Shown piece after piece: positions 7,073 to 42,401 of a stretch of 64,000 nt of DNA. Made by a program: the position numbers and the translations under genes. The DNA comes from Acidimicrobiales bacterium. GTDB taxonomy: Bacteria; Actinomycetota; Acidimicrobiia; Acidimicrobiales; JAUJNH01. How positions within the stretch are numbered: position 1 is the stretch's first letter; each line of letters starts with the position of its first letter. Location: positions 15,788 to 79,787 of the forward strand of contig JAUJNH010000006.1 in the NCBI GenBank assembly GCA_030448245.1, in the 5' to 3' direction. A model generated the notes under the pieces. The model was not told the origin of the DNA. It saw only the letters and a program-made list of their open reading frames with translations, and ran no database searches.

Positions 7073-7076
7073 CGCC

Positions 7077-13762: not shown

Positions 13763-13899
13763 CTGCTCCCGACGACCATCGCCTCGGGCCGTGCGCGCCG
13801 GAACGGCGGAGAGCTCACCGACAGCCAGAGGTTCCCAGGGGGGAGGAGGATCAGGCCTCGCCAGCGGCTGCGGCGTCCGGCTCCCTCCTCCGTGAGGCG

Positions 13900-14544: not shown

Positions 14545-14557
14545 GCGTGGCTCCTGC

Positions 14558-15658: not shown

Positions 15659-15669
15659 GCCCCTACCTT

Positions 15670-16060: not shown

Positions 16061-16649
16061 ACGTGACGAGCAGCGCGCCGCTACCGGAGTCAAGGGCGTC
16101 AGCTCAGCCGAGTTCACCGGCGCCGGCATCGCCTCGCCGCAGTACCCGAAGAACGGACCGGCATCGAAGAAGGGCCCCTACCGGGCCCAGGTCGCCCAGA
16201 AGGTCAACGACCTGCGCAGCGGCACCCATGCCAACGCCACCGCTGCCTGGGCTGTCGAAGCCTTCCGAAGGATCAGCGGCACCACCCTGGCAACGGCTCA
16301 CAACACGCCAGTTGCCCTCAACGCCATCCACCGACGCGCCGCACGATCAGCGTGACGGTCGACAAGAAGTCGGGGGCAATCACCCACCTCGGGTGACCCC
16401 GACGGCGCCCTTGTCTCGAGGCAGAACGTGGGACGCTCCGGAGACGTCGATGAGGACGGACACGTACGCGGGTATGTCCTCTACGATGAGCGATCCGCGT
16501 CGAGGGCTTCCGGGGTCGCCCCAGGACTGGGGGAAGCGCCTCTCTCCAGGAGCATCTCGGCCGCTGCTCGGAGCGCCATGAAGGCGCGGAAATGGCAAGG
16601 TGCGACCTTGCACACCTGAAGGCCAGGAGTACGTGCGAGGGTTGCCGCA

Positions 16650-17267
16650 ATGGTGCACGGACGGGAGCTCGAGGCCGGCTCGGCCCGGGCCATCGAACGT
16701 CGGACGTGGCGTGGCCGGCTCCAGGCCGCTGGTCGCGGCGCGCTGGGCGACCTGCTCGACCCTGTGGCGACCCGTGCGGCCGGCGGCGACGAGGAGGCCC
16801 TCGAGGACCTCATCTGGGCGGTGGACGAGCTGCACCTGGCCCGCCCGGCGGTTCGCCGCCTGGTGGTGCAGGAGTCCGACGCCGAGGAGGTGGAGCAGGA
16901 CGTGCTCGTGGCGGTGGCCGAGACCATTGCGGGGTTCCGGGGCGACGCCCGGTTCACGACGTGGCTCCACCAGCTGGCCCGCTTCAAGGCGATCGCCCAG
17001 CTCCGCCGGCGGAAGGAGTCCTTCGTGCTCGATGAAGAGATGGGAGACGCCGCCCGCATATCGTCCATCATCGCCACCCGCACCGTCCTCGACGAGGCCA
17101 TCGGGGGGCTGCCCGACCTCTACCGGGCCGCCGTCGTTCTGCGGGACGTCGAGCAGCGCCCCTACGCCGAGGTGGCGGAGCGGCTCGGCGTGAACATCAA
17201 CACGGTGAAGGCCCGGGTGGCCCGGGGCCGGGCCCTGGCCGCGTCCCGGTTGCGGGCCGGCCGGTGA
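16650..17267 (+). CDS. ECF-type RNA polymerase sigma factor
   Basis: Sigma-70 region 2 (FTTWLHQLARFKAIAQLRRRK) and region 4 (YAEVAERLGVNINTVKARVARGR). Confidence 0.75.
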   Translation: MVHGRELEAGSARAIERRTWRGRLQAAGRGALGDLLDPVATRAAGGDEEALEDLIWAVDELHLARPAVRRLVVQESDAEEVEQDVLVAVAETIAGFRGDARFTTWLHQLARFKAIAQLRRRKESFVLDEEMGDAARISSIIATRTVLDEAIGGLPDLYRAAVVLRDVEQRPYAEVAERLGVNINTVKARVARGRALAASRLRAGR

Positions 17268-18589: not shown

Positions 18590-18718
18590 GCCGCTTCCTG
18601 CAACGGGCGTGCGCAGGCCGACAGGGTGCCATGCCCCCGGTGCGCGCGGGCGCGGCCCCTCCAGCGGACCTCCCGTGGTCTCGAGCCGGTCGCTGATCCC
18701 CCTAGGCTTCGGGCTGGC

Positions 18719-19153
18719 GTGGAGAGGTTCTTGTCAGTGGCGGTCCTGTTGGCGCTGGCCGGCTTGGTTCTCTTGGTCACTGGTTTCCGCCGCCTGCGCC
18801 GCAGCCGGTCCTTCCGGACCCGGGCGGCGCGGGCCACCGTCGTGGTCATGGAGCAGCGCTTGCAGGCCCCGGCGGCGCTTCCGGGTCTGCCTACTTCCCG
18901 GTGGCGGTTCCAGACGGCCGACGGCGGCACCGTGACTTTCATCTCCGACATCGGCTCGATGCCGGCTCATGCTCCCGGGAGCGGCATCGGAGTCCTCTAC
19001 GACCCGGACCGACCGGCTGATGCCCGCATCGACTCCCCCCTCCGGACGAGCGGACGAGCCGCTCTCGAGCTGATCCTCGCGGCGTGCATGCTCGGCGGGA
19101 GCCTGACGGTCCTCGCCGCCCGATGGGCGATCTCCCTGCTGCCTGCTCCGTGA
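18719..19153 (+). CDS. DUF3592-like membrane protein
   Basis: TM helix, beta-rich middle, C-terminal TM, as in DUF3592; start uncertain (GTG at 18719 chosen). Confidence 0.4.
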   Translation: MERFLSVAVLLALAGLVLLVTGFRRLRRSRSFRTRAARATVVVMEQRLQAPAALPGLPTSRWRFQTADGGTVTFISDIGSMPAHAPGSGIGVLYDPDRPADARIDSPLRTSGRAALELILAACMLGGSLTVLAARWAISLLPAP

Positions 19154-19348
19154 GCTCGCCGGATGAGGCCTACGTCGTGCGCCGCCGGCTGCCGTGGCGG
19201 GTGGGCCTGCGGGGCACGGTGGGGCGTGGGTGTGATCGTGCTGGTGATCTCACCGGCGGGCGGCAACGGTGCACCAGGGTCTCAGGGCCATCGTCGAAGA
19301 CCCGGCTGATCCCTGCCCGTGGCTCCCGGGCTACGACGACCGATCGTC

Positions 19349-19402
19349 GGCTGGACCCTGGATCACCACCAGCTCGGCTGGACCCTGGATCACCACCAGC
19401 TG
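19349..19402. repeat. Perfect 27-bp tandem duplication (GGCTGGACCCTGGATCACCACCAGCTS x2)
   Basis: Direct reading of the intergenic region upstream of the 19532 lipoprotein. Confidence 0.7.
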
Positions 19403-19531
19403 GCCCAGGCGGTGCGGGCGTTCGCGCCCCAGGTCGAGGTCCTCCACCTGCAGCAGGCGCCGCGAACATGAGTTTCTTGCAACCGATCCGCCGCACGGCG
19501 CGACCAACGTGGTGAACCAGGAGGAACGCCA

Positions 19532-20119
19532 ATGACCATGCCAACCATCTCCCACCGACTCCTCGCCCTCGGAGCGGCGCTCACCGTCGCCCTGACGGCC
19601 GGCGCCTGCTCGAACCCCTTGGAAGAGAAGGCCGACACCACGAGCGGCGTCGCCACCACCGCGGTGGTCGGGACCACCACCAAGGAGGCATCCAGCACCC
19701 AGGGATCACAACCGCCGAGCACCGCGGAACGGGCCGCCATCGCTACCAGCGGTGACCCGGCGAGCACAGGAGGGGGCATCGAGATCACCTCCCTCAAACG
19801 GGACTCCAACCAGCTCGTGACCCTTCGGTTCTTCCTGGTGAACAAGGGCACCAAGAACGTCACGGTATCCAGCCGCTTCGGGGCCGGTGGCACCCGGGAT
19901 GTCTCCGAGGTCTACCTCGTCGACCCCGACGGCCTCAAGAAGTACCTCACCGTGCAGGACACCGATGGGGGCTGCCTGTGCAGCACCAACCTGTTCGACG
20001 TGAAGCCTGGTGACCGGCTCGAGCTCTTCGCCACCTTCGCGGCGCCGCCCCCGGACGTGAAAGCGGTGACGGTGGTGGTGCCCTCGTTCCAGCCCGTCAA
20101 CGACGTCCCCCTGTCATGA
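19532..20119 (+). CDS. Lipoprotein, Thr/Ser-rich linker plus beta-rich domain (DUF4352-like)
   Basis: AGGAGG RBS upstream; lipobox LTAGAC; C-terminal ~110-aa globular domain. Confidence 0.55.
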   Translation: MTMPTISHRLLALGAALTVALTAGACSNPLEEKADTTSGVATTAVVGTTTKEASSTQGSQPPSTAERAAIATSGDPASTGGGIEITSLKRDSNQLVTLRFFLVNKGTKNVTVSSRFGAGGTRDVSEVYLVDPDGLKKYLTVQDTDGGCLCSTNLFDVKPGDRLELFATFAAPPPDVKAVTVVVPSFQPVNDVPLS

Positions 20120-20694
20120 TCCGCCGGTTGCTGGCCGTTGCCGTGCTGCTCACGGTCCTTGTGCCGGGCGAGGCGTCCGCCCAACAACAGGTGAAGCCCA
20201 AGGTGCTCGACCTCAAGCTGCGGGTCGTCGACCTCCGGCTGCGGGTCGAGAGCCCACAGGGCGTGCGGGGCGAGTCTCCCTCCCAGGTCGACTTCGCCAT
20301 CGCCGGCGACGTGCTCTTCGCGTTCAACGAGGCGACCCTGACGCCGGCGGCGGCGGCAATCCTGTCCGGCCTGGCCAACGAGATCCGGGCCCAGGCAGCC
20401 GGCCCGGTCAAGATCGTGGGGTACACCGACGCGGTGGGGGAGGACGCCTTCAACCTCGACCTGTCCCGGCGGCGGGCAAAGGCGGTAGAAGCGGAGTTGC
20501 GCCGCCTCCTGGCGGGCGCAGTGTCGGAGTTCACCACCGACGGCCGGGGGGAAGCCGACCCGGTGGCGCCCAACAAGAACCAAGACGGCTCCGACAACCC
20601 GCAGGGCCGGGCTCGGAACCGTCGGGTGACCGCTACCTACGCCAAACGCTCCGCTTCCTCAGCGCCGACGACGTCATCGGCGAAGGGGCCATGA
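20116..20694 (+). CDS. OmpA/MotB C-terminal domain protein
   Basis: ATGA overlap with upstream lipoprotein; signal peptide; OmpA_C motifs (FAFNEATLT, VKIVGYTDAVG, NLDLSRRRA, NRRV). Confidence 0.7.
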   Translation: MIRRLLAVAVLLTVLVPGEASAQQQVKPKVLDLKLRVVDLRLRVESPQGVRGESPSQVDFAIAGDVLFAFNEATLTPAAAAILSGLANEIRAQAAGPVKIVGYTDAVGEDAFNLDLSRRRAKAVEAELRRLLAGAVSEFTTDGRGEADPVAPNKNQDGSDNPQGRARNRRVTATYAKRSASSAPTTSSAKGP

Positions 20695-21512
20695 CGGGCG
20701 GCACCACTCGGCCGCACGGCCGAGCGTCGGAGCGGGCTTCCAGCCGGCCGCACCGGTCGCCCACCCGGGTGCCCGAGGCGGTCGAGGCCAAGATCTGCCG
20801 TGTGCGGCAAGCTGAGAAGGTCGGCGCCGACCGCCTCGCCATCCACCTGGGCGCTCCGGCCTCGACGATCCACCGCGTCCTGGTTCGCCACGACCTCAAC
20901 CGGCTCGACCGGCAGACCGCCCAACCGATCCGCCGCTACGAACGGGCCCGCCCCGGCGAGTTGGTCCACGTCGACGTCAAGAAACTCGGGAAGATCCCGC
21001 CCGGCGGCGGCCACAAGATCCACGGCCGGGCCGCCACCAGCAGCGGCGGCCGGCGCCGGCTGCGGATCGGCTACGCCTACCTCCACACCGCCATCGACGA
21101 CCACAGCCGCCTGGCCTACACCGAGGTCCTCGCCGACGAACAAGGCCGCACCTGCGCCGGCTTTTGGCGTCGAGCCAACGCCTGGTTCGCCGCCCGGGGC
21201 GTGATCGTCGAGCGGGTCCTGACCGACAACCACTTCTCCTACCGGGGACTGCTGTTCAACCAGGCGCTGGCCGACACCAGGATCGTGCACAAGTTCTGCC
21301 GGCCCTACCGGCCCCAGACCAACGGCAAGGTCGAGCGGTTCCACCGCACCCTCCTCGAGGAATGGGCCTACGTCCGCCCCTACACCCGAGAAGCCGACCG
21401 CACCCGCGCACTTGCGCACTGGCTCCACCGCTACAACCATCACCGAGTGCACACCGCCATCGGAGACGCCCCCATCACCCGCGTCACCAACCTCCCCGCG
21501 AAACACAGCTAG
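20691..21512 (+). mobile_element. IS481-family transposase (integrase core), N-terminally truncated
   Basis: rve domain with DDE residues (HVDVKK...D, ...TDNHFSY, ...E); only the second HTH (SRPHRSP) is present and the reading frame begins inside the OmpA gene, so ~60 N-terminal aa are missing. Confidence 0.7.
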
Positions 21513-21527
21513 TCGGCGCAGACCGAA

Positions 21528-21546
21528 CTGCCGATCTGCTCGGCAG
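21528..21546 (+). terminator. Hairpin CTGCCGA-TCTGC-TCGGCAG just after the transposase stop
   Basis: 7-bp perfect inverted repeat; coordinates approximate (+/-2). Confidence 0.3.
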
Positions 21547-21896
21547 CTTCTTGCGACCGGTCGAAACCGAGTCGGCACTACGTCCTGCAAGCTGGTCTGG
21601 CGGGCGAGCGAACGGGGCGCCCAGAACTTTCGGCCGCCGACCGCAACGTCGTCGCCGACGTACCTGTCGGGCGCCCGGGAACGGCACCAGCCGAGCGCTC
21701 GGTATCGATCGGGCTCTCAACTCGTGCTTGGCGCTGGCTTACCAGGGTCCGCGACGGGGCGTGGACCGTCCTCTGGGATGGGTTGTCGGTCCGGGAGCTT
21801 CGTAGCCGGCTTCCTGGGGTCGTGGCGGCGAGCGAACAGCTGGGCTTGCACGGGCTGTGGGGGAGGGCGATCGCGAGCTGCCCGCCTGCTCCAACG

Positions 21897-22960
21897 TCAT
21901 GGCTTTGGCGCGATCCTCAGTATCCGGTCGTCGTCGCTCGCTGGGCTGCCCCGGCCGTCCCGGTTGGAGGTGGTGAGGTAGACGGCGCCGTCGGGCCCGA
22001 CGGCCACGTCTCGCAGCCGCCCGTGGTCGTCCTTGTAGAGGACCTCTTCGTCGGTCACTCTGCCGTCGCCTCCCAGGGTCAGTCGGTGCAGGCTCTCGCC
22101 TCGGAGCGTGACGAACAGGAGCGAGTCCTTCCACTGGGGGATGAGGTCAGCCGAGTACACGACGCAGCCGGCAGGAGCGACCGCCGGGGTGTAGTTCCTG
22201 ATCCCGTTGCCCGACGTGGCTGGCCATCCGCCGTCAAAGCCCTCTCGGAGCAGGTTGACCTCGTCCCTGCCGCTCGGTCCGTGCTCGGTGGCGAACAGCC
22301 TTCCGTCGGGTGCGAAGCACAGCCCCTGCACGTTGCGGTGGCCCTTGCTGAACACCGTCACGTTGCCTGAGTCGGGATTGACCCGTAGGACCTTGCCGTT
22401 GAGGCTGCCGACGTCGGCAGCGAGGTCAGGTTGGGCAGCGTCACCGGTGGAGGCGTAGAGCTGGCCGTCAGGACCCAGGCGAAGGCGTCCACCATCGTGG
22501 ATGGCTGCTCTGGTGATGCCTTCCACCAAGACCTTCTGCGACCCGTCTGGTTCGAAGCGCACGATCCGGTTGTCGCGCTCGGTGGTGTACATCACGAACA
22601 TCCGCCCCCGCTGGTCGATCTCCAGTCCCATCAGCCCACCCTCGCCCGACTCGGAAACGCCGTCGATCTGCCGCGACGTCCCGCCGGCGCGGCCCAGGCG
22701 ACCGGAGCGCTCGGTGTACCAAGGGCGCCCTGAGGGTCCCAAGCCAACGACCACACCGTGTCAAGGTTGCGGGCAACCTCGGTGACGGCCAACGGCATCG
22801 GGCGCCCGGTCGCCGCGGCCGTCGTGCTTGGGAGGCCGCTCGGTTCGGCGCTCAGGCTCGTGGTCGTGTTCGTCGACACCGACGTCCGTTGGCCAGAGCC
22901 GCAGGCGGTGGCGACGACGAGGAGGGCCATCACCCAGAGGGAACGCGAAGGCATGGTCAC
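21897..22960 (-). pseudogene. PQQ-dependent sugar dehydrogenase (soluble glucose/sorbosone dehydrogenase family) lipoprotein, frameshifted
   Basis: N-terminal part (lipobox VVATACGSG; NLDTVWSLAWDPQGAL) in ORF 22631..22960 and the rest (RPWYTERSGRL, beta-propeller repeats) in ORF 21897..22754; frame change near 22735. Confidence 0.6.
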
Positions 22961-23098
22961 AACATCTCACGCCGCGAGCCGGTCCGGACCGCGGCCACGT
23001 CGGGTGGCCCGAGGCTCGAGAACGCCGGGAACGTCACCAGCCGAGCGCGAGCTATCGCTCACGCTTAGTCCCCCGGAGCCATCGGCGTTCGTCGGCCG

Positions 23099-23330
23099 TC
23101 AGTAGGCGATAGCGATGCGGTACCCACCGTCGTACTCCTGTTGCTCCCGGAGGTGGCCGTGGCGGTCGTCCCATGCGCCGGATTCAAGGTCTGCCTTCAA
23201 CTGTGCCGCGCCGCATTGGCGGTCGGTCTCCGGGAGCATCGCCAGCCACGACGTGCCGGCCTGGACCTCGGGATCTAGGTAGGCGTCCGGCCTGGCCCAG
23301 AAGCAACGGGACGTCGATACCGGTACCTTG
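23099..23330 (-). pseudogene. Possible C-terminal remnant of a SAM-dependent methyltransferase
   Basis: Only the last ~75 aa look protein-like; the rest of the ORF overlaps the LLM gene on the opposite strand. Confidence 0.15.
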
Positions 23331-23335
23331 CCGCC

Positions 23336-24300
23336 ATGCCACTCCCCGATGGCATCGGCTTCTGGTTGCAGGCCGAGCCGGCGGATGGTGGGTCCTGGGT
23401 TCAGTTGGCGCGCCACGCCGAGGGCATCGGCTTCGAGGGCATCTGCCTCGGTGACCACCCCGGTCTCGGCGCCTCGCCGTTCGTCGCGCTGGCCGCGCTC
23501 GCCCAGTGCACGTCGACTATCCAGCTCGGCACAGCGGTGCTCAACATCGGTACGTGGAGTTCCCTTGCACCTGGCGACAGAGGTGGCCACGCTGGTCGCG
23601 CTCAGCGGAGAGCGGGTCGTCCTTGGAGTCGGTGCCGGTCACAACCCGACGGAGTGGACGGCGACCGGCCGAACCTTTCCGACTGTGAGCCAGCGGGTGG
23701 AGCACATGGTCGAGGTCGTGGACGCGGCCTGGGCCCTGCTCCGCGGCGAGGTCGTCACGCTCCAGACAGACCACGTGCGGCTCCACGAGGCTCAGCTGCG
23801 CCGGCCGCCGGGTCCCCAAGTCGCCATCCCGCTCCTCGTCGGCGGCAACGGTCGGGGCGTGCTGCGGTACGCCGCCCGGGCCGCCGACGTGATCGAGCTC
23901 ACCGGGCTCGGCCGCACGCTCCCCGATGGGCAGGCCCACATGCCGGACTGGGCGCCCACGGCGGTGGATCAGCGCGTCGCGCTCATCAAGGTCCAACGCG
24001 GTGACCGCCCGTACCGCCTCAGCGCGCTCGTCCAGCGATGCACGATCACTGACTCCCGGACCGACGCCCTCCAGCCTTTCGAGCCGAGCTGACCTAGCTC
24101 ATGGGGCATCAACAGGCCCCCACCATGTCAGACCTGTTGCAGACGCCCTACGTGCTCGTCGGGTCGGAGAACGAGATCCTCCACCAGTTCCGCGCCAACC
24201 GGGATCGATGGGCATCACCAGGTACACCGTCCGCACCGAGGCCCTCCATGCCCTGGCGCCGATCATCGACCGGTTGCGCCTCGAAGCAGGCGAGCGCTGA
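23336..24300 (+). pseudogene. LLM-class (luciferase-like) flavin-dependent oxidoreductase, multiply frameshifted
   Basis: Family-typical segments lie in three different frames: N-terminal (GFEGICLGDHP, LGTAVLNI), middle (VVLGVGAGHN), C-terminal (TPYVLVGSENEILHQF and GITRYTV). Confidence 0.55.
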
Positions 24301-24792
24301 CCTACCTCGCGATCGGCGAGAAGCCGCCCTTCCCACCCGGCGTGATCCGGACATGGTCGATCGACGAGGTAATGGAGGTCGACGGACTCCAAGACTCCAT
24401 CAGCATGTTCTTCCACGCCGGCCCACCGACGTGAGGACAGACAGCGTCATACCATCGCCGCCTCACGTCGCTCGGAGGTGGAGCCGACTCGAGAACGCTC
24501 GGGCTCGGCATTCCTGAAGGAGCGGGTTTTGTCAAGACCGTGTCGGCCGCCAGGCCGACTCCATCTCCATCTGGGCCCCCTTCCTCTTCGCGGGGTTGTC
24601 GTTGGGGGGTTCTCGCAGCAGAGTCCGCTTCAGCGGTGGCCTCGCCGAGCTCGGGGGCCTGTCATTCCTTCGTCACGCCCAAGGGTTGGGTGACATGCTG
24701 CGATCAGGCCACAACCGGTTGGGCTCAAGCACAAAGCCGGCCGCTTCGGGCCATGCCGATAATCGAGCTCGCAACCGGTTGCGCCGAGCCGG

Positions 24793-25020
24793 TCAGCCCG
24801 TCTCGGCCAGGCAACGGATCTCACCGTCGCGCAGGCCGTAGTAGACGAGCGTCAAGAGCTTCCGGGCGACGGCCACACGGGCCTTGGCCGTTCCCCTCCG
24901 CTGAGCGATCCGGTGGTAGTCGGCCCGCAGCTTCGGACCGCCCCGCCGGTTGCCGGACGCCTCGATCGCCGCCCACCGCACCAGTGGTGAGCCCTGCTTG
25001 GTGATCGACCCCCGGTGCAC
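24793..25020 (-). mobile_element. IS110-family transposase C-terminal fragment
   Basis: 75-aa ORF ending ...ARVAVARKLLTLVYYGLRDGE, characteristic IS110 transposase C-terminus; no upstream remainder detectable. Confidence 0.45.
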
Positions 25021-25454
25021 CGTCGTGTCCGACTCGTGATGCTTGGGGGTCAGGCCCGCCCACGAGCACAGCTGCCGAGGCCCCGGGAACTCGTGCTCCG
25101 CGGATCAGGTAGACCAAGCCTTCCGTGAAGCCGAGTACGGCACGTCCTGCTCGCTCGGTAACAGCGTAAGAACTGGCCTGGATGGACAGTTGACCTGTTG
25201 GCCTTCGGTCTTCCTGTTGTCCTCCTGGCCACGATGCTCGCATTGCGAGCTGGCAGGGACAAAGGTCGGGTCGCCACCGTGCACGCACCTTCGCAGCGAC
25301 GTCAAGTAGACGCTCCAGGCTCCCGATCGGGCGGACCCCTCGCCGAGGTTCATCGTCATCTTGAGGCTGCCGACACTGCCCGGTAGCGGCACCAGCCGGG
25401 CGCGAGGTAACGCACGACGGGATCTCGTGAGAGGACAGCGGGCTGGTTGGTGTC

Positions 25455-26387
25455 GTGAGCGGGGAGACTTCCCGTGTGAGCGTGGACACCCAGCCGATCG
25501 ATACCTGGTGTCGAGAGGTGCTGGGCGCGAGTGTCTCCGCGACCATCTTCTCAAGAGGACGCCTCGCACAGGTCATCGGGGTCCAGCTCGACGACGGCCG
25601 GAAGGTGGTGGTGAAGGTTCGGCCGGCATCTCCTCGCCTGGCTGCCGTCGTCTCTACGCAGCGTCACCTCCATCAGTCCGGGGTTCCCTGTCCCCGGCCG
25701 CTCGCCGGGCCGCTGCCCTTCCGCGGTCAGGCGATCACCGCAGACTCGTACGTACCCGCGGACCAGCTGCCTGGCGGGGTTCCACCAGCAGACGCCTGCG
25801 CCGAACTCCTCGCCGCCATCGTGGCCGCCGGACCGCCGGCCTCTGCCGTGGCGGAACTCAACCCGGCGCCACCATGGGTCGGTTGGGACCACCCTGGTGA
25901 CCAGACGTGGCCACCGCCTGACGATCTCGATGCCGACCTCAACCGCTCCGCAGCCAGCGACTGGCTTGACGCCGCGGCTCGCCGGGTCCGCCAGGCGCTC
26001 CTTGCGCACGCCTCGGCACCCGTCGTCGGTCACGTTGATTGGGAAGCGCACAACATGGGATGGGACGGCGAGAGCCCGATCGTGGTCTACGACTGGGACA
26101 GCCTGGCGATCCGAACCGAGCCCACGATCGTGGGGGCCGCGGCGACGGTCTTCGCCTCGACGACCGGTAGGACGGTCGCGGCATCCGTCAGCGACACAGC
26201 GACGTTCTTGGACAGCTACCAACGGCGACGCGAGCCGTTTCCAGCCGAGGACATGAAAGCTGCGTGGGCAGCAGGGCTGTGGACGCTGCTGTACAACGCG
26301 AAGAAGGAGACAGCCGGTGGGGGCGGCGGCTACCTGAAGCATCTCGAGGCTGAACTCGAGCAGCGGATGCGACTGGCCGGACTTTGA
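25455..26387 (+). CDS. Phosphotransferase-family protein (APH/choline-kinase-like)
   Basis: 310 aa; Brenner-type HxD region (VGHVDWEAHN) and DxD (YDWD) as in aminoglycoside phosphotransferase-like kinases. Confidence 0.55.
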   Translation: MSGETSRVSVDTQPIDTWCREVLGASVSATIFSRGRLAQVIGVQLDDGRKVVVKVRPASPRLAAVVSTQRHLHQSGVPCPRPLAGPLPFRGQAITADSYVPADQLPGGVPPADACAELLAAIVAAGPPASAVAELNPAPPWVGWDHPGDQTWPPPDDLDADLNRSAASDWLDAAARRVRQALLAHASAPVVGHVDWEAHNMGWDGESPIVVYDWDSLAIRTEPTIVGAAATVFASTTGRTVAASVSDTATFLDSYQRRREPFPAEDMKAAWAAGLWTLLYNAKKETAGGGGGYLKHLEAELEQRMRLAGL

Positions 26388-26549
26388 GCCGCCGCCGGAC
26401 CGGGACGAGGCTCTGGGGCGGCCTCAACAGCCGCGGGTGGGCCCAGAACGCCCAACCAGAACGCCTTCATGCAGCCCAGGCGTCGCCACCAGGGCGCCGA
26501 TCGGGCGCCGGGGTACCGCACGTCCCGAGGGCCCGGTAACGCTCGAGTC

Positions 26550-26945
26550 TCACCCCTCGTGTTCCCGACCTCGGCCTTCGTCGGCCGGGAGATCCACTTC
26601 GTGTCCGCAACCGTGGCAGAACATGCCGTCCGGGCCCCTCCACACCCGGTTCGTAGCGCAGTGCATGCACCTCAGGGAGGACTGCAGCGTCCCTCGGCAC
26701 GCAGTGCATCGACGTTCGAATCGGGATCCACCGGCGATCCGGGCCAGAGCCGCTCCGCAGAGGGGACATCGACGTGGGCGGCGTCGATCGGCTCTGCTCA
26801 GCACCCGGACAGATTGCCGCATGATCGAAGCGTCGCTCGTGGCACCCCACCCACGGATCGCGGGTCGGTGACGTCGGCACGTACGCGGTGATGGCCTCAA
26901 CCGTGGCACCGGACACCTCGACCAGTCACCGCTCGGGATCGGCAC
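26550..26945 (-). CDS. Possible small zinc-ribbon protein
   Basis: CPLCG...CTACRG...CMHCA...CHGCG cysteine pairs; weak coding signal. Confidence 0.2.
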   Translation of the reverse strand: MPIPSGDWSRCPVPRLRPSPRTCRRHRPAIRGWGATSDASIMRQSVRVLSRADRRRPRRCPLCGAALARIAGGSRFERRCTACRGTLQSSLRCMHCATNRVWRGPDGMFCHGCGHEVDLPADEGRGREHEG

Positions 26946-27625
26946 ATCCGTGCGATTGGTGACGAACAGGCGCTTGGTGTGTCTCGCAGCGCTCCTCGCA
27001 GGCCCGGCCCCCGATCCCGAGCTGAGGCACCTGGCATGAGCGCTCCCTAACGGCGGGCTGCCGAAGTGGTTCGGCCGGAATCTGACGCATTGTGGGGCAC
27101 GATCCAGACTGGCGCCACCTCAGAGGTCGTGGATGATCATCCCTTCCTCATCATCCGGGTCAGGTCGGAGGGTCTGTTCGCTCCCGGAGCTGACGGTGAG
27201 CGCTTCATCAGGACCACCCAACGACTGCGACAAGGCTGACGGCAGTCACCTCGTGGCCGTCGGCTCTGCCTGTGCCTCGAGCGTGGGGTTGAGGTCGAGC
27301 GCGCGACGGCGGGGAGCCGGGCGGCCAGCCCCGCGCACGGCGGAACGGGGTAGGCCTGGAAGAGGAGCCGGCGCCAGCGGGCGCCGGCCGCCTCGGCAGC
27401 GAACTGGGCGTGGCGCTCGGCCACCATCTGAGCGGTGAAGTTGGGGTGTCCGAGCATGGGCCATTGTTCGCACCCGAGGTAGGCACCCGCAATCGGTTAA
27501 GCGTCCGTCCGACGTCAGCCCGAGCCGCCGTGACCTGGTCACGACCAGCATCTGGCAGGCCAGGATCCGGGAGGCCTACCTGGAACAGCCCTCGTCGCCG
27601 CCTCGTCCTCGCGGCGCCGATCCGC

Positions 27626-27793
27626 CTACTTCTTCTCGCCCCGGGCCGCTTGGACGTCGTCCTCGACCTGTTGGACGGTCTCGTCGTCCGGCTTGTCGCC
27701 GGTCTTCTCCTCGGCCCGCCCCTCGGCTTCGACCTCGCGGTCCTCCGTGACGTTGCCGACCACCTTCTTGATGTGTCCCAAGGTCTCGCCCAT
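27626..27793 (-). CDS. CsbD-family small stress protein (55 aa), absent from the ORF track
   Basis: Manual translation MGETLGHIKKVVGNVTEDREVEAEGRAEEKTGDKPDDETVQQVEDDVQAARGEKK; CsbD-like KxxGKVTxD...EAEGK pattern. Confidence 0.5.
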   Translation of the reverse strand: MGETLGHIKKVVGNVTEDREVEAEGRAEEKTGDKPDDETVQQVEDDVQAARGEKK

Positions 27794-27858: not shown

Positions 27859-29367
27859 GTGCTGCTGTCCGAGGTCGTGGCCACCTCCGCCGCCGTCACC
27901 TCGACGGCGAGCCGCTCGGCCAAGGTGGCGGCCCTGGCCGACCTGCTGCGCCGCCTCGCCCCCGACGAGGCCGAGGTGGTGGTGGCCGCCCTGGCCGGCG
28001 AGGCCCGCCAGGGGCGCATCGGCGTGGGGTGGGCCACGGTCCGGGCCCTCGACGTGCCGGCCGCAGCCGAGGCGTCGCTCACCGTCGCCAACCTCGACCA
28101 GGCCCTCGACGACTTGGCCGCCACGGTCGGCACCGGATCACAGGCTGCCCGGGCCAGCGGGCTCGACCGCCTGCTGCGGGCGGCCACCGCCGACGAGCAG
28201 GTCTTCCTGCGTCGGCTGCTGCTGGGCGAGCTGCGCCAGGGGGCGCTCGAGGGCGTGGCCGCCGATGCCGTGGCCCGAGCCGCCGGCGTGCCCCTGGCGC
28301 TGGTCAGGCGGGCCGCCATGCTGGCCGGCGACCTCCCCTCAGTGGCCGCTACCGCGCTGGCCGGCGGCGCCGAGGCCCTGGCGGGGATCGGCCTGGAGGT
28401 CGGACGGTTCGTCCAGCCGATGCTGGCCGCCCCCGGTGACGCGATCACCGACGCGCTGCCCGCCCACGGTGGCCCCGCCTCGGTCGAGCAGAAGCTGGAC
28501 GGGGCCCGGCTCCAGGCCCATCGGTCGGGGGCGCTGGTCCGGCTGTTCACCCGGAACGGCAACGACGTGACCAGCCGCCTGACGGCGGTGGCCGACCTGC
28601 TCCTGGCCCTGCCCTGCACGTCGGTCGTGCTCGACGGCGAGGTCATCGGCCTGGCCGAGGACGAGCGGCCCGACCGCTTCCAGGACACCATGTCCCGATT
28701 CGGCCGCCACGTCGGCGAGCACGGCGCCACGCTTGCGGTGCGCTTCTTCGACTGCCTCCACCTCGACGGCGACGACCTGCTCGACGAGCCGCTGTCGATC
28801 CGGTCCGAAGCCCTCGAGCGGGTGGCGGGAGCCTGGCGGGTGCCTTTGGTGCGGACGGCCGAGCGGGCCGAGGCCGAGGCCTTCCTGGCCGCCTCGCTCG
28901 CCGCCGGGCACGAGGGGGTGGTGGTGAAGGACGTGGCGTCGACCTACGAGGCCGGCCGCCGGGGTGGGGCTTGGCGCAAGGTGAAGCCGGTGCGCACCCT
29001 CGACCTGGTCGTCCTGGCCGCCGAGTGGGGGAGCGGGCGGCGCCGGGGCTGGCTGTCGAACCTCCACCTGGGCGCCCGCGACCCCGAGGGCGGGCCGCCG
29101 ATCATGGTGGGCAAGACCTTCAAGGGCCTGACCGACCAGCTGCTGCGCTGGCAGACCGACGCGCTGCTCGAGCGGGAGGTGCGGCGCGAGGGCCTCACCG
29201 TCGTCGTGGAGCCCGAGCTGGTGGTCGAGATCGCCCTCGACGGCGCCCAGCGCTCGACCCGCTACCCGGGCGGCGTGGCGCTGCGCTTCGCCCGGGTCCG
29301 CCGCTACCGCGATGACAAGGGACCGGCCGACGCCGACACGATCGACGCCGTCCGCGCCCTCCTGTAG
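27859..29367 (+). CDS. ATP-dependent DNA ligase
   Basis: GTG start (VLLSEVVATSAAV typical N-terminus); adenylation motif I EQKLDG, motifs III-VI; OB-fold C-terminus. Confidence 0.85.
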   Translation: MLLSEVVATSAAVTSTASRSAKVAALADLLRRLAPDEAEVVVAALAGEARQGRIGVGWATVRALDVPAAAEASLTVANLDQALDDLAATVGTGSQAARASGLDRLLRAATADEQVFLRRLLLGELRQGALEGVAADAVARAAGVPLALVRRAAMLAGDLPSVAATALAGGAEALAGIGLEVGRFVQPMLAAPGDAITDALPAHGGPASVEQKLDGARLQAHRSGALVRLFTRNGNDVTSRLTAVADLLLALPCTSVVLDGEVIGLAEDERPDRFQDTMSRFGRHVGEHGATLAVRFFDCLHLDGDDLLDEPLSIRSEALERVAGAWRVPLVRTAERAEAEAFLAASLAAGHEGVVVKDVASTYEAGRRGGAWRKVKPVRTLDLVVLAAEWGSGRRRGWLSNLHLGARDPEGGPPIMVGKTFKGLTDQLLRWQTDALLEREVRREGLTVVVEPELVVEIALDGAQRSTRYPGGVALRFARVRRYRDDKGPADADTIDAVRALL

Positions 29368-29437: not shown

Positions 29438-30415
29438 TTGACCATGGTGCGGAGGCGGGCGGCCGCGGGGTTGCTCATCGTGGCGGCCTTGGTTGGATGC
29501 AGCGGTGGGAGCCGGGATGAGGCAAAGCCCTCTCCAGGCGGTGCAAACGTCGCCCCGGCACGCGTTCCCCAGGTCGGCGACTGCCGCGGGCCTATCTCCA
29601 AGGAGATCTTCCGCTCCAGCTTCGATGCACGTCCGACGGTGCCATGCGAACAGGTGCATGGATCCGAGACGGTCTTCGTTGCTCAGCTCTCGGCTGAGCT
29701 GGCCGGGCTTCCGCACGACAGGATCTCCGCCATGTTCGATGTCAAGTACGGGACCGCGGAGCTGGATCCGGTCTTGAGCGAGTGCGAGGTCGCGTTCGAA
29801 CGCTATGTCGGCGAGACCCGGTTCGCACCGGACGCGACGCTGCCCAGCAACCTTTCACTGGCTTTCTTCATGCCGTCGTTCGATGAGTGGGGCGAGGGTG
29901 CGCGGTGGGTTCGGTGTGACGCCGTCACGGCACCGTTCACTGGGCAGGAGACGAGGGGGACCACCGAGAGCCTCCGGGGCAGAGCGGCACGTGATCCACG
30001 GGCGCCGTGGCGCGTGTGCTTCAACGAAACCTCACGACCGGAGAACCTGGACGAGGGCCGTTCCGAGGGAAGCCCGTTCACGTCGTGCGACCAGCCGCAC
30101 AACGTCGAGGAGATCATGCGGATCAGGGTGGCTGATCCCAAGGTCGACATGGCCGCCGATGACACGAGCGTCATCACGAGCTATCTCACCAGAGAGTTCG
30201 GCCCGCGCTGCGTCGATCGTGCTGCCGCCCACCTCGGCCTGTCCAGGAGGGCCACGGAGCAGCGCGAGGACATCGAGTTGAGTGTTTTTGCGATCGATCC
30301 AGCCGCGTGGCCGACCAGCTCCCGAGCTCGCGCCGTGGCTTGTCGTGCCACCACCCAAGAGCCCACTGTCGGCACGCTGGAGGGTCTGGGGAGCAGGCCG
30401 CTGGTTCGGTCCTAG
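29438..30415 (+). CDS. Lipoprotein with septum-formation-family-like Cys-containing domain
   Basis: Lipobox LVGCSGG; paired conserved Cys (VGDC...C, C...C). Confidence 0.45.
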   Translation: MTMVRRRAAAGLLIVAALVGCSGGSRDEAKPSPGGANVAPARVPQVGDCRGPISKEIFRSSFDARPTVPCEQVHGSETVFVAQLSAELAGLPHDRISAMFDVKYGTAELDPVLSECEVAFERYVGETRFAPDATLPSNLSLAFFMPSFDEWGEGARWVRCDAVTAPFTGQETRGTTESLRGRAARDPRAPWRVCFNETSRPENLDEGRSEGSPFTSCDQPHNVEEIMRIRVADPKVDMAADDTSVITSYLTREFGPRCVDRAAAHLGLSRRATEQREDIELSVFAIDPAAWPTSSRARAVACRATTQEPTVGTLEGLGSRPLVRS

Positions 30416-30466
30416 CAGGACCCTCCGTGGCGCGCCCGGGCGGCCGCCCACCAGGGCCGGCGACCG

Positions 30467-31423
30467 TTGGTAGCGCCATGGTCACTCCTAGGCTGGCGGG
30501 TCATGCCCATGCCCGCTCTGCCCTTCCGGCTAACCCTGGCCGCCGCGTGCGGCCTGCTGCTCCTTGGCGGGATCGCCGCCGCGGTCACCGTCGACGGGGA
30601 GGATGGCGGGCCCACCTCCGAGGAGGCGACCCCGGCCGCCTCCGACGTGGCGCCGGCGACGACGGCGGTCGCCCCGGTCGACACCGCACCCGTGCCGGTC
30701 CCCGCCGCCCCCGAGGGAGTGACCACCACGACGGGCGCGGCAGCCGCCCCCACCACCACGGCCCGCTCGCGCCCGACGACCACGGCCGCGCCGGCCCGGA
30801 CCAGGAGCGCGCCGGGCCCTCTGGTGGCCCCGAAGGTCGGCACGTACGGCTACGACGCGACGACCAGCTCGAACGGTGCAGCGCCCAGCACGAGCAGGAT
30901 CACCGTCACCGTCGAAGCGGCGGGCTCCGAGGGCGCCACCACCCTGCAGGACATCTCCATCCCCACCGACCAGTTGGGCCAGCGCATCACCATCCGCAGT
31001 CGGGTTGCCTGGGGCTCGTCGGGGGCCATCGTGCGCCGCAGCCAGGCCATGGGTGCCGACTGCGGGTGGCAGCCGCCCTGGGCGCAGTACGCCGGCGGCC
31101 TGAAGGTGGGCCGGACGTGGAGCTACGACACCCGGTGCTCGGTGACGACACCGGTGCAGGCCACGGTCGAGCGCCGCGGCAGCCGCCGAGTGACGGGCAC
31201 CTCGACGGTCGACGCGGCCGGCCAATCGGTGGCCACCTGGACCATCGCCGTCGACGAGACGACGGTGATCACCACGCCGCTGGGTGTCGTGTCGGTGCGC
31301 TCGGTCGGCACCGAGCAGCTCGCCCCCTCGCTCGGGGTCCCGGTCGCCAAGGACGAGTCCCTGTCCGGTACCGGCATCGCCCCGAACACCACCAGCAGCC
31401 TGAAGCTGGTGTCGTTGCCCTAG
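30467..31423 (+). CDS. Secreted Thr/Pro/Ala-rich protein with C-terminal beta-rich domain
   Basis: Signal peptide; low-complexity TTTAAPA linker; start uncertain (30467/30494/30500). Confidence 0.45.
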   Translation: MVAPWSLLGWRVMPMPALPFRLTLAAACGLLLLGGIAAAVTVDGEDGGPTSEEATPAASDVAPATTAVAPVDTAPVPVPAAPEGVTTTTGAAAAPTTTARSRPTTTAAPARTRSAPGPLVAPKVGTYGYDATTSSNGAAPSTSRITVTVEAAGSEGATTLQDISIPTDQLGQRITIRSRVAWGSSGAIVRRSQAMGADCGWQPPWAQYAGGLKVGRTWSYDTRCSVTTPVQATVERRGSRRVTGTSTVDAAGQSVATWTIAVDETTVITTPLGVVSVRSVGTEQLAPSLGVPVAKDESLSGTGIAPNTTSSLKLVSLP

Positions 31424-32732
31424 GCGCCCGAGCCGACCTCTTCGGCGCGCGGCCTCCTCGGTCACCCAGTACTCGGCGGGCGGGCCGTCCGGGCGGAGCG
31501 CCTTGAACAGGTCGACCCCGGTGGCGTTCTCGAGCTGCTCGGCCAGGCCGATGACGGCGGCGGGAAGCTGGGTCATGAAGCCGGGCACGCCGTTCCCCTG
31601 GCCGCCGCTGTCGATGATCGACACCTTGTCGATGTCGACCGCTCCCACCGTCGAGACGATCTTGTCGACGAGCTCGGGGAGCATGCGCAGCACGAAGATC
31701 GGCGCGCTGGGCGTCGGAACCGGCGGCCTGGTACTGCTCGACGAGGCGGCGGAACACCTCGACCTGGGCGTTGCCCTCCTCGATGATCTTGGCGGCGTCC
31801 GCCCGGGCGCCCAGCTGCCGGGCCTCCAGGTCGGCCCGGGCCGGTGCGACCACGTCAGCCTCGAGCCGCCGGGTCTCGAGCTGGACCCGCTCGGTCTCGA
31901 GCGCCTGCTCGGCCACGACGCGCGCCTTTTCACCCGCCACCAGGGCCTCGGCCTCGGCCGCGCCGGCCAGGGCCTGGAGCTGGGCCTGGCGGACGCGGAG
32001 GTTGTTCTGCTCCTCGACGATCTTGAGGTCGGCCTGCGCCGTGGCGATCATGCCCCGCTGGCGAGACAGCGCCTCCGACTCCTCGGCCTCGGCCTTGCGC
32101 TGGGCCTCGGCCACCCTCGCCTCCTTCAGCACCTCTGCGGTCTGGCGCCGACCGACCGAGTCGAGGTAGCCCACCTCGTCGGTGACGTTCTGGATCTTGA
32201 GCACGTCGAGCTCGAGCCCCAGGGTCTTGATGTCGTCGTCGGCCTCGTCCATCAGGGTCTGGGCGAACTTCAGGCGGTCCTCGTTCACCTCCTCGGGGGT
32301 CAGGGTGGCGAGAACGCCGCGCAGGTTGGCTTCGAGCGTCTCCTTGGCGATGGCCGCGATGTGGGCCTGGGGCACGGTGAGGAAGCGCTCCACCGAGTTC
32401 TGGAGCAGGCCCTCGATGCTCGAGACCTTCACGTTGGCGATGCCCTGCACGTTCAGCGGGATGGCGCCGCGCGAGTAGGCGTTCCGCACCGCCACCTCGA
32501 TCGGGATGGTGTTCAGCTCCATCCAGGCCACGCGCTCGAGGAGCGGCACCCGAAGAGTGCGGCCGCCGCGGATGGCCCGGTAGCCGACGGTGCGACCGTC
32601 GCTGAGCTGGCGCGAGCGACCGGAGATCACCGCCACCCTGTTCGGCGGGCAGATGATGAGCAGGTTGCGGACCGTGACGAGGATCACGAGCACCGCGAAG
32701 GCGAGCGTGGCGCCGATGGCGAGGGGTGTCAT
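31420..32732 (-). pseudogene. Flotillin / SPFH (band 7, YqiK-like) protein with two apparent frameshifts
   Basis: N-terminal TM and SPFH domain, coiled-coil (EAQRKAEAEE) in frame of ORF 31269..32987; C-terminal flotillin region (APIFVLRMLPELVDKIV...) in a second frame; a third frame is needed to reach a stop (palindromic CCTAGG shared with the convergent gene). Pseudogene or indel errors. Confidence 0.55.
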
Positions 32733-32763
32733 GGAGGGTTCGCTCCTGGGTCGTAGGCGGGCA

Positions 32764-33297
32764 TCAGGTGAGCTCGGGATCGAGGCGGACGACGCTGGCG
32801 ACGCCGTGGCTGACCTCGACCACCAGGACGGGGGCCCCCACCTCGAGCTCGGCGTCGGCCGACTGGACGGGCATGGCACGGGCGGAGAGGTAGAGCTGCT
32901 GACCGTCGACCGAGACGGCGATGCGGCCGCGGCGCTCACCAGCCACCGGCAGGACGACACGGCCGACGGTGCCAGAGAGCCGCTCATCGCTCACCGACGT
33001 GGTCGAGTCGGACCGTCGCAGGTAGGCGAACACCGAGCTGTTGAGCACGCCGGCGGCGGCGCCGGTCCCGGCGGCGCCGGCGAAGGTCGTGCCCGCCGCC
33101 GTGTCCAGTGCCGTGAGGAGCAACCCGCACAGGCCGAAGGTGGCGGTGACGATGGCGACCGTGCTGAGCGGCAGAAGGCGCAGCATGAGCCCGCCGATCC
33201 CGCTGTTCTCGCCGCCGGACTCGTCACCGCCGCTCAGCAGGAACCACGCCATCACGGGGACACCGGCAGCGGCGGCAAAGACGTACAACCCGATCAT
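32764..33297 (-). CDS. NfeD/YqiJ-family membrane protein (flotillin partner)
   Basis: N-terminal TM helices plus C-terminal OB-fold-like beta domain; immediately upstream of the flotillin gene on the same strand. Confidence 0.65.
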   Translation of the reverse strand: MIGLYVFAAAAGVPVMAWFLLSGGDESGGENSGIGGLMLRLLPLSTVAIVTATFGLCGLLLTALDTAAGTTFAGAAGTGAAAGVLNSSVFAYLRRSDSTTSVSDERLSGTVGRVVLPVAGERRGRIAVSVDGQQLYLSARAMPVQSADAELEVGAPVLVVEVSHGVASVVRLDPELT

Positions 33298-33378
33298 CGG
33301 ATGACTGCGCCCACGCCTTTTGACGGTAGTGCTGCCTCTCCAGATCCGGTCAGGAAAGTCGCGGCGAGCGGGAGGCGC

Positions 33379-33987
33379 CTACCGCCCGACGTTGCGGAGG
33401 CCGGCCCAGGCCAGCTCGGCCAGGAGGTCGGCGATCTCGGCGGCCGAGGTGGTGGCCTCGCCGGCGGCCCGGGCCCGCAGCCAGTGGCGGCAGGTGGACT
33501 CGGCCATGCCGACGATGCCGTGGGCCAGGGTGAGGGTCTGCTCGGGCGGGAGCTCAGCCGTGATGAACGAGGCGATCAGCTCGGCGATGGCACCCTCGAC
33601 CAGCCGGACCCGATCGGCGAAGCCCTCGTCGCGCTTGCTGCCGCCGCCGAACAGCAGGCGGAAGGCGTCCTCGCGGTGCTCGACGAACCGGAAGTAGGCG
33701 CCGAAGCCGGCCTGGACCTGGCCGTGGGGGCCGTCGGCCTCGGCGGCCGCCTTGGCGATGGCGTCCATCAGCTGGCCGCCCACGTCGTCGAGCAGCTCGA
33801 CGTACAGCGCCCGCTTCGAGCCGAAGTGCTGGTACAGCACGGGCTTGGTGACGCCGGCCGCGGCCGCCACGTCGTCCATCGACGTGCCGTGGAACCCACC
33901 GGTCGAAAAGGCGGCGAGCGCGACGTCGAGCAGCTGCCGTCGACGCCGGGCGGCCGGCAGGCGGGGCGTGGGGTCGGGGGCGGCCAT
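33379..33987 (-). CDS. TetR-family transcriptional regulator
   Basis: 202 aa; TetR_N HTH (LLDVALAAFSTGGFHGTSMDDVAAAAGVTKPVLYQHFGSKRALY). Confidence 0.8.
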   Translation of the reverse strand: MAAPDPTPRLPAARRRRQLLDVALAAFSTGGFHGTSMDDVAAAAGVTKPVLYQHFGSKRALYVELLDDVGGQLMDAIAKAAAEADGPHGQVQAGFGAYFRFVEHREDAFRLLFGGGSKRDEGFADRVRLVEGAIAELIASFITAELPPEQTLTLAHGIVGMAESTCRHWLRARAAGEATTSAAEIADLLAELAWAGLRNVGR

Positions 33988-34469: not shown

Positions 34470-34501
34470 CCGCTCCCGCTGCACCAGCACCGGATCTCTG
34501 T

Positions 34502-34750
34502 TCCCCGCCGGTGCGTCGACGGCACCGCCTCGCTTGACTCGCTTCGCTCGCGCTATTTCCCGCCGGTGCGTCGGGACTCGCTTGACCCCTGTCTTCCCTC
34601 GTCGCTTCCCCCGCTCGCCTGGCGGCTCGCCTCCTCCGCTCCTCAGTCCAGACAGGGGCCGCTCGCCCCTCGCCGGCTCGCTCGCTTCGCTCGCGCGGCT
34701 TCCCGCCGGTGCGTCGGACGGCACCGCCGGCTCGCTCGCTTCGCTCGCGG
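34502..34750. repeat. Intergenic array of ~50-bp imperfect direct repeats (three copies; core CCCGCCGGTGCGTCG...GCTCGCTTCGCTCGCG)
   Basis: Copies at ~34502-34552, ~34555-34590 (partial) and ~34699-34749; read directly. Confidence 0.6.
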
Positions 34751-41604: not shown

Positions 41605-42401
41605 TGGCGTCCACCACCCCAGCCGCCCATCGGTCCGGGGGCCGGCTGTCGCCGCTCCTCGGTTGGGCGTCGCTCGTCCTGGTGGGGGCCACCGTCGGCC
41701 TCGGCCTGGTGCTCCCGAAGACGGCCGAGCAGGCCGAGTACAGCCGCCTGATCGCCGTCCACCCGCCCGTGGCCTGGGTGTCGTACGTCGCCGTGGGCGT
41801 GGCCTCGGTCGCCGCCATCGCCTACCTGGCCAGCCGCCGGGCCGCCTTCGACCGGGTGAACGCGGCCAGCCTCGAGGTCGGCGCGGTGTTCACCGCCCTC
41901 ACCCTGGCCACCGGCTCGATCTGGAGCCGGCCGACGTGGGGCGTCTGGTGGCGGTGGGAGCCGCGGCTCACCACCGAGGCGCTGCTGCTGGCCGTGCTGG
42001 TGGGGGCCATCGCCCTTCGACGGGCCCTGCCGCCCGGCACGGGTCGGGGCGTCGTCACCTCGATCTTCTCCCTGGCCACCCTGGGGCTCCTGCCCATCGT
42101 GCACTTCTCGGTCGAGTGGTGGCGGTCGCAGCACCAGCCGGGCACCCTCCTGGCCCCCGAGCCGTCGAGCAACGCCGACACCCCCTACCTCCTCGCCATG
42201 TTCGTCGGCTTCCTGGCCTTCACGGTCCTGTACGCGTGGATGGTGGTGCAGCGGGTGCGGATCGAGCGCCTCGAGGAGCAGGCCGACGACCTCGCGCTGG
42301 GGCGGGCCATCGCCGAGCGCCGGGCCGAGCGCGCCGACCCGCCGCCGGTCGCCCCGGCCGTGACCGGTCCCGCCGTGCCCACCGGTGAGCAGGCCGTCTG
42401 A
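41604..42401 (+). CDS. ccmC: Heme exporter protein CcmC
   Basis: TGATG overlap with ccmB; WWD-domain motif region (WGVWWRWEPRLT) and conserved His residues. Confidence 0.8.
   Translation: MASTTPAAHRSGGRLSPLLGWASLVLVGATVGLGLVLPKTAEQAEYSRLIAVHPPVAWVSYVAVGVASVAAIAYLASRRAAFDRVNAASLEVGAVFTALTLATGSIWSRPTWGVWWRWEPRLTTEALLLAVLVGAIALRRALPPGTGRGVVTSIFSLATLGLLPIVHFSVEWWRSQHQPGTLLAPEPSSNADTPYLLAMFVGFLAFTVLYAWMVVQRVRIERLEEQADDLALGRAIAERRAERADPPPVAPAVTGPAVPTGEQAV

Follow-up and report, generated by a model that had tools for sequence, protein, structure and literature searches.

Two insertions spread a conserved flotillin gene of an Acidimicrobiales bacterium over three reading frames: consensus error or recent strain-specific frameshift

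Organization of the flotillin locus

The window analyzed here is a whole stretch of 64,000 nucleotides (nt; 73% G+C) from contig JAUJNH010000006.1 of an Acidimicrobiales bacterium (assembly GCA_030448245.1). A flotillin gene on its minus strand, from 32732 to 31420, was found by three-frame translation to be spread over three reading frames. Frame borders were set by codon-usage Viterbi segmentation of the whole window, and a frame plot of G+C at third codon positions (GC3) was set aside as too noisy for strand calls. The following features lie at the locus.

31704..32732, minus strand: flotillin frame A segment, codons 1-343, with N-terminal hydrophobic anchor, SPFH/Band_7 domain and Ala/Glu-rich coiled coil (translation, Pfam)
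31699..31702, minus strand: insertion 1, 4 nt, TCGG on the plus strand and equivalently GCCG or CCGA on the coding strand, frame +1
31448..31698, minus strand: flotillin frame B segment, codons 344-427 of the intact protein, with the conserved C-terminal block and the start of the variable tail (translation)
31446, minus strand: insertion 2, 1 nt, C on the plus strand and G on the coding strand, within the Pro codon of ...AAPEEVGSGA, frame +1
31420..31445, minus strand: flotillin frame C segment, last 8 codons (EEVGSGA) and the genuine stop at 31420-31422 (translation)
31269..32732, minus strand: flotillin open reading frame (ORF) as recorded, 487 amino acids (aa), with 344 native residues and 143 out-of-frame Arg-rich residues (translation)
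31419..31424, no strand: CCTAGG palindrome, whose core CTAG at 31420-31423 holds both convergent stops with a 2-nt overlap (sequence)
30503..31423, plus strand: convergent gene of unknown function, 306 aa from the ATG at 30503, or 318 aa if the upstream TTG at 30467 is used (ORF list)
32764..33297, minus strand: NfeD/YuaF-like gene, 177 aa, intact, immediately upstream of the flotillin gene

Frame A starts with the ATG at 32732 and runs through the SPFH domain and the coiled coil to ...EQYQAAGSDAQR. By tblastn this segment was 100% identical to residues 1-343 of P0001, the 435-aa flotillin of a sister metagenome-assembled genome (MAG). Frame B carries (A)PIFVLRMLPELVDKIV...GVDLFKALRPDGPPAEYWVTEEAA, including the C-terminal block IFVLRMLPELVDKIV...GVDLFKALRP, and was 98.8% identical to residues 344-427 of P0001. 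From there this frame has no stop as far as 30530, a distance of about 916 nt, which agrees with the run of roughly 900 nt without a stop reported in a preliminary description of this DNA. The Viterbi segmentation changed frame at 31698/31699 and 31448/31449, and tblastn with the intact homologue placed residues 1-343 at 31704-32732 and residues 344-427 in the next frame at 31448-31699. The three-frame gene first proposed from the letters alone was thus reproduced by minus-strand translation, Viterbi borders and tblastn. The two sites of frame change were also found again, and comparison with intact homologues refined them to insertions of 4 nt at 31699-31702 and 1 nt at 31446. The insertions lie 257 nt apart and sum to +5 nt, so they do not compensate each other. 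As a result, the C-terminal block does not stand in one uninterrupted ORF with the rest of the protein (it falls in frame +1, and the last 8 codons fall in frame +2), and the recorded 487-aa ORF extends 155 nt into the convergent gene.

The ending in frame C had been taken for the true one, and the closest intact homologues indeed end in ...AAPEEVGSGA/G. The EEVGSG-type ending of frame C was shared by P0001 and by P0002 and P0003 (435 aa, 94% identical), the latter two both ending in ...AAPEEVGSGG. Gene calls gave the same 4-nt overlap of the flotillin and convergent genes in the sister MAG (L002) and in two contigs coding for the 94%-identical flotillins (L003 and L004). Since this CTAG overlap is kept in the nearest relatives, the third-frame ending is regarded as genuine. 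The two stops had been described as one shared TAG. They do overlap inside CCTAGG, but the plus-strand stop occupies 31421-31423 and the complement of the minus-strand stop 31420-31422, with only 2 nt in common. The exact 306-aa convergent product was present on Logan contig L022, and no Pfam or NCBIfam match was found for it. A hairpin at 31385-31416, just 3' of the flotillin stop, was rejected as a terminator, being no stabler than shuffled sequence (z=-0.88).

Identity of the flotillin and its NfeD-like partner

The frame-A product matched PF01145 Band_7 over residues 27-213 (E=1.2e-20; 74.7 bits, with 23.6 as the Pfam gathering cut-off), and intact P0001 gave the same result. A phmmer search of PDB returned human flotillin-1 chains (E=1.5e-35, query residues 26-302 against flotillin-1 residues 3-272) and flotillin-2 (E=2e-25), and a flotillin-type coiled-coil region after the SPFH domain was recognized in the same comparison. 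The assignment to the flotillins made beforehand was borne out by both the Pfam and the PDB matches. A putative N-terminal hydrophobic anchor was read from the translation (MTPLAIGATLAFAVLVILVTVRNLLII). With the NCBIfam FloT model NF058507, intact P0001 scored 151.2 bits (E=5e-44), below the equivalog cut-off of 700. Judged from these scores, the window protein is a member of the SPFH/flotillin family and not a FloT equivalog or orthologue.

In each of the 21 relatives checked, the gene that directly precedes flotillin encodes a homologue of the 177-aa protein. A profile built from 16 homologues of this upstream protein matched Bacillus subtilis YuaF (PDB 2K14) with E=1.3e-6. The window protein alone reached only E=0.11 with Pfam NfeD, under the threshold, and E<=0.01 was obtained for three of the 16 homologues. 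The upstream homologue in all relatives and the profile match to YuaF identify the locus as a standard NfeD-flotillin gene pair of an Acidimicrobiales bacterium. It had been asked whether this pair is intact in relatives: the NfeD-like gene adjoins flotillin in all 21, and flotillin is in a single frame in each except L016 and L021.

Flotillin proteins were 84-93% identical across most retrieved Acidimicrobiales MAGs, including ones labelled Microthrixaceae and Iamiaceae. The adjacent NfeD-like partner was just 29-79% identical across those genomes. The 84-93% identity, together with the constant adjacency to the NfeD partner, shows that flotillin is under strong selection.

Intact flotillin genes in the relatives

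The conceptually repaired flotillin protein was used as query and retrieved 5497 homologues at E<=1e-10, the best of which was P0001 (99% identical). Its source, the sister MAG GCA_030447705.1, belongs to the same species and is 99.8% identical, and its flotillin is one 435-aa ORF. Three stretches of its contig JAUJOI010000014.1 (L023, L002 and L026) aligned to window positions 1968-20738, 21508-42785 and 39921-60587 at 96.7-99.9% identity. Exactly two indels separated the window from the sister MAG in the flotillin gene, the 4-nt and the 1-nt insertion, and both were in the window.

At site 1 the coding strand reads CAGCGCGCCGATCTTC in the window, CAGCGCGTCTTC in the sister MAG and CAGCGCATCTTC in L003, L004, L005 and two JGI contigs. 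The relatives thus have CAGCGC(A/G)TCTTC there, and insertion 1 is absent from L002 and from these five contigs. At site 2 the window has GCCGCGCGCCGAAGAG against GCCGCGCCCGA(A/G)GAG in the others, and insertion 2 is absent from L002, L003 and L004.

When 21 related loci were compared with P0001 by tblastn, flotillin was in one frame in all but L016 and L021. Beyond P0001 and P0002/P0003, 17 of 19 further Acidimicrobiales loci were single-frame, and L016 and L021 break at other positions than the window. The C-terminal block was part of a single ORF in P0001-P0003, L002-L015, L017-L020, L027 and L028. By tblastn, frame breaks in the flotillin/NfeD-like pair were absent from related contigs other than L016, L017 and L021. 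A single-frame flotillin is thus the ancestral and general state. Alignment with homologues had been named as a check, and it showed both insertions to be unique to the window and the close relatives to be single-frame.

The three loci with breaks belong to Microflora Danica MAGs, which we take to be long-read assemblies. The break lies in flotillin in L016 (3001-4238) and L021 (3001-4103), and in the NfeD-like gene in L017 (2381-2951).

Three further searches were made. A contig scan of genomes for site 1, with either version allowed, gave no match. A scan of metagenome contigs gave none with the long site 1 pattern; the short pattern was matched by two distant JGI contigs, neither of which has the insertion (CAGCGCATCTTC). 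A protein search with the intact C-terminal tail for Logan fragments returned just nine short unrelated fragments.

The insertions in the public record and the state of the gene

A protein search with the out-of-frame tails gave one match, P0121, of 487 aa, on an NCBI contig of 259.4 kb; no other dataset in this search carried the tails. P0121 is identical to the window frame-A ORF through the stop at 31269, and since this ORF crosses both sites, both insertions are present in the deposited sequence. At face value the sequence would yield a 487-aa product without the C-terminal block, which is presumably conserved from bacteria to human flotillins, and this product is probably non-functional. 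Neither lesion affects the NfeD-like gene or the convergent gene.

Apart from the insertions, three differences from the sister MAG were detected in the flotillin gene (31580, 32163 and 32541), all three synonymous and none non-synonymous. The one in frame B, at 31580, was the sole nucleotide difference from L002 in that segment. The 1.3-kb gene showed no other sign of decay, and its three segments, each read in its proper frame, were free of premature stops. Relaxed selection would show as surplus non-synonymous or further disabling changes, and these were not found. Segments B and C still spell out exactly the residues and the stop of the ancestral gene. Any loss of the gene would be very recent. 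Over 27.8-42.8 kb, 29 synonymous and 13 non-synonymous coding substitutions were counted between the window and the sister MAG. By this ratio, the two are real, closely related strains under purifying selection.

Contigs of the same run and a repeated 9-mer

Logan contigs, which are independent k-mer assemblies, were compared for the window run SRR24765286 and the neighbouring run of the sister, SRR24765285. A literature search found no publication for the accessions of the run and the assembly. Contigs of SRR24765286 matched the window at 30256-31423 (100%, 1168 nt), 32173-33493 (99.92%, one mismatch, 1321 nt) and 11316-13929 (100%, 2614 nt). They leave 31424-32172 uncovered, and both insertions fall inside this gap. 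Such a gap in the k-mer graph fits a difficult stretch, and it could be caused by k-mers shared between species in a conserved gene, by low coverage or by allelic heterogeneity. At 32726 the Logan contig has A and both the window and the sister MAG have G, which changes flotillin codon 3 from Pro to Ser. The SRR24765286 population is therefore not clonal at flotillin.

Both insertions create the identical 9-mer GCGCGCCGA (plus strand TCGGCGCGC), at 31442-31450 and at 31699-31707. The word occurs three times in the window, the remaining copy being at 42329-42337. When random 4-nt and 1-nt insertions were simulated in the intact gene, an exact word of at least 9 bases was shared over both in 0.14% of the trials (P about 0.0014; post-hoc). 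This suggests one context-dependent cause for both lesions. The shared cause could be a context-dependent consensus error, or a templated mutation copying GCCGA between GCGC microhomologies.

Indels and assembly quality across the window

Nearly every Viterbi coding segment of the window ended at or near its own stop codon. The exceptions were the two flotillin segments, a few modest overshoots and the segment 17262-18032, whose frame is open to 18589. The preliminary description feared that indel errors would also affect other frameshift calls in the window. Outside the noisy patch at 20.7-27.65 kb no further frame change without a stop was found, so the concern was borne out only in part. 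Besides this patch, no other assembly-specific frameshift was detected against the sister MAG over about 54 kb. There were zero indels in 39921-60587, and those in 1968-20738 were non-coding or self-compensating, plus one at 20725 on the edge of the noisy patch.

Two indels of the SNF2-family helicase gene (8261-11488, plus strand) lie at 11139-11143, where a 1-nt insertion and a 1-nt deletion relative to the sister are 4 nt apart and the frame is restored after one codon.

In the noisy patch, about 105 small indels and 97 mismatches were counted between window and sister MAG over 20.7-27.3 kb, and most of the indels were deletions in the sister. This amounts to about one small indel per 55-100 nt (about 1%) over the match, against 99.8-99.9% identity with almost no indels in the rest of the 54 kb compared. 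The sister deletions break a GSDH-like gene several times; in the window, a single frame covers Pfam GSDH positions 12-329. Natural divergence would not bring the ratio of indels to substitutions near 1; therefore, at least the sister assembly contains patches of consensus noise. Such noise is typical of long-read or hybrid assembly, and the pipeline behind these MAGs gives local indel errors.

The window has a single ORF, at 27859-29367 on the plus strand, for an ATP-dependent DNA ligase with N, M and C domains. In the sister this gene is split (L002 13801-14868 and 13361-13804) by a 1-nt deletion at window position 28805, a mirror image of the flotillin case.

Origin of the two insertions

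The preliminary description left the choice between a decaying gene and assembly indels. Both remain the sole live explanations, and recoding was excluded as described below. The lesions are unique to the window assembly, the relatives are intact and the gene shows no other decay. In our estimate the chances are about even that the insertions are consensus errors and that the organism makes a normal flotillin. This reading is favoured because of the conservation of the gene, the zero substitution load, the patchy indel noise, the gap between the Logan contigs and the shared 9-mer. The frame breaks that all three Microflora Danica MAGs show in this gene pair count on the same side, as does the intact ORF of the sister MAG. 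Assembly, polishing or the bridging of gaps with long reads could have brought the 4-nt and 1-nt insertions into the consensus. The gene is extremely conserved, and reads of related species may have mapped to it and disturbed the result; alternatively, the consensus may have captured a minority allele. The lesions would then be absent from most cells, and the underlying sequence would be CAGCGC(A/G)TCTTC at the first site and GCCGCGCCCGAAGAG at the second.

A number of observations weigh against consensus error. A non-repeat 4-nt and a non-homopolymer 1-nt insertion are atypical as platform errors, and two independent random errors within 257 nt would be expected in a few per cent of cases at the error rate found elsewhere, whereas a second hit is natural in a gene that is already dead. 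Outside 20.7-27.65 kb there was no other frame break in about 50 genes. Over about 54 kb, the density of indel differences outside the noisy patch was about ten times as high in non-coding DNA as in coding DNA, which looks like real polymorphism filtered by selection. A non-coding indel at 12349 was confirmed independently in both runs: Logan contig L025 (SRR24765286) agreed with the window, and L024 (SRR24765285) with the sister MAG, both at 100% identity. This ties each MAG to its own run and shows that as a rule the assemblies follow their reads.

The alternative is a genuine, very recent pseudogene or a high-frequency frameshift allele in the SRR24765286 strain, to which we give a little less than an even chance. 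A first insertion would have inactivated flotillin and a second, neutral one would have followed, leaving a 487-aa protein with a nonsense tail that is probably non-functional. Both insertions are in the public record, and the window agrees with the k-mer assembly of its own run (two identical contigs and one with a single mismatch), including a strain-specific indel; that assembly, however, breaks off on both sides of the lesions, and the out-of-frame tails occur in no other dataset. The 29 synonymous against 13 non-synonymous substitutions indicate two real strains, and the concentration of indel differences in non-coding DNA points the same way. Two clustered lesions are expected once a gene is dead, and these are not of the homopolymer type. 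Yet the 3 synonymous and 0 non-synonymous differences in 1.3 kb would require an extremely recent loss that nevertheless gathered two indels, with a joint likelihood of about 5% (rough), and the identical 9-mer at both sites would have to be put down to chance or to some special mechanism. Flotillin is dispensable in model bacteria, as in B. subtilis floT mutants, which counts for a pseudogene, as does the sister strain with its likewise split, non-essential ligase. The gene is nevertheless among the most conserved of the neighbourhood, in one frame in 17 of 19 other loci, and the two broken ones are Microflora Danica MAGs.

Programmed recoding, in which two +1 ribosomal shifts at GCGCGCCGA would give a full-length flotillin from the three frames, is very improbable. 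It would account for the same 9-mer at both frame changes, with one further copy in 64 kb, and for both shifts being +1. However, the 99.8% sister MAG, the contigs for the 94%-identical proteins and 17 of 19 other loci are single-frame without both insertions, and recoding was excluded because the relatives have this single frame. Moreover, the 9-mer differs in codon phase, starting on codon position 3 at site 1 but on position 1 at site 2. The shift site has neither a zero-frame stop nor a rare codon, frame A continues for 143 codons, and there is no homopolymer run for transcriptional slippage. Least credible of all is that both +1 shifts are functional through the newly created GCGCGCCGA, or in a weaker variant that both are real and arose through one template switch copying GCCGA between GCGC microhomologies 257 nt apart.

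Whether assembly artefact or ordinary strain-specific frameshift, the case is nothing new in kind, and its sole curiosity is the identical 9-mer. Its biological weight is small and its practical use is as a quality flag. P0121, the chimeric 487-aa product in the public record, is unsuitable as a flotillin sequence. The stretches to be treated as unreliable are 20.7-27.65 kb of the window, the ligase of the sister MAG and the flotillin of the window; elsewhere the frames of the window are trustworthy.

Other features of the low-coding stretch and a repeat array

The stretch 20700-27650 has low coding potential and a lower G+C (67-70%). An rRNA operon was considered and rejected, as an Rfam scan of the window found no RNA family. 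The following features were recognized within the stretch.

21897-22760, minus strand: GSDH-like gene, its N-terminal signal peptide apparently in another frame at 22631-22966
23279-24092, plus strand: luciferase-like monooxygenase in two frames, split at about 23560
24793-25104, minus strand: IS110-type transposase, fragment only
25431-26387, plus strand: APH-like kinase
within 20700-27650: double-zinc-ribbon ORF

The luciferase-like gene shows that the window, too, is not clean here: one frame encodes PF00296 positions 14-81, the other positions 82-207, and nothing corresponds to the last third of the domain. There was no indel difference between window and sister MAG at 23297-23621, and the break seems common to both assemblies. 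Look-ups of the GSDH-like and APH-like ORFs found neither on record, and their guessed start codons may be wrong.

Between a glycosyltransferase gene and a small membrane-protein gene, the intergenic region 34498-34749 contains three copies of a GC-rich unit of ~46-54 nt (CGCCGGCTCGCTCGCTTCGCTCGCG then CGGCTTCCCGCCGGTGCGTCG). The window has one copy more than the sister MAG, and L003 and L004 are without the array. Four small indels relative to the sister were found in this region, and the GTG with which the small gene starts in the sister does not stand in frame with it in the window.

Comparison with known systems

The lesions resemble those of frameshifted conserved genes in long-read or hybrid MAGs, where isolated small indels absent from the sister split an otherwise perfectly conserved gene. 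The usual indel errors of such assemblies are homopolymer deletions, whereas here non-repeat and non-homopolymer insertions were found and the rest of the window is clean. Ordinary recent bacterial pseudogenes likewise have strain-specific lesions, more than one in a gene, with intact neighbours; the window gene differs from them in having no substitution load (0 non-synonymous). For a +1 frameshift gene of the prfB type one would expect a shift conserved in the orthologues, a zero-frame stop or hungry codon at the shift site and the signal in the same codon phase at each site. The insertions of the window are not conserved, and neither the codon nor the common phase is present.

The gene pair itself has the order of the B. 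subtilis yuaF-floT (yuaG) operon of NfeD2 and flotillin, in which the gene for a small NfeD-like membrane protein immediately precedes that for an SPFH/flotillin protein. Like B. subtilis FloT, the protein has an N-terminal anchor, an SPFH domain, an Ala/Glu-rich coiled coil and a conserved C-terminal block. It differs from FloT in a score far below the equivalog cut-off and, in the window, in a C-terminal block that is out of frame. Similarity to eukaryotic flotillin-1 and flotillin-2 (PDB 9BQ2, 9L3G) is significant over the SPFH and coiled-coil region; unlike these, the window protein is bacterial and has an NfeD partner, and C-terminal similarity was not detected by phmmer. The block that follows site 1 (IFVLRMLPE...IDSGG) looks by eye like the C-terminal region of flotillin-1.

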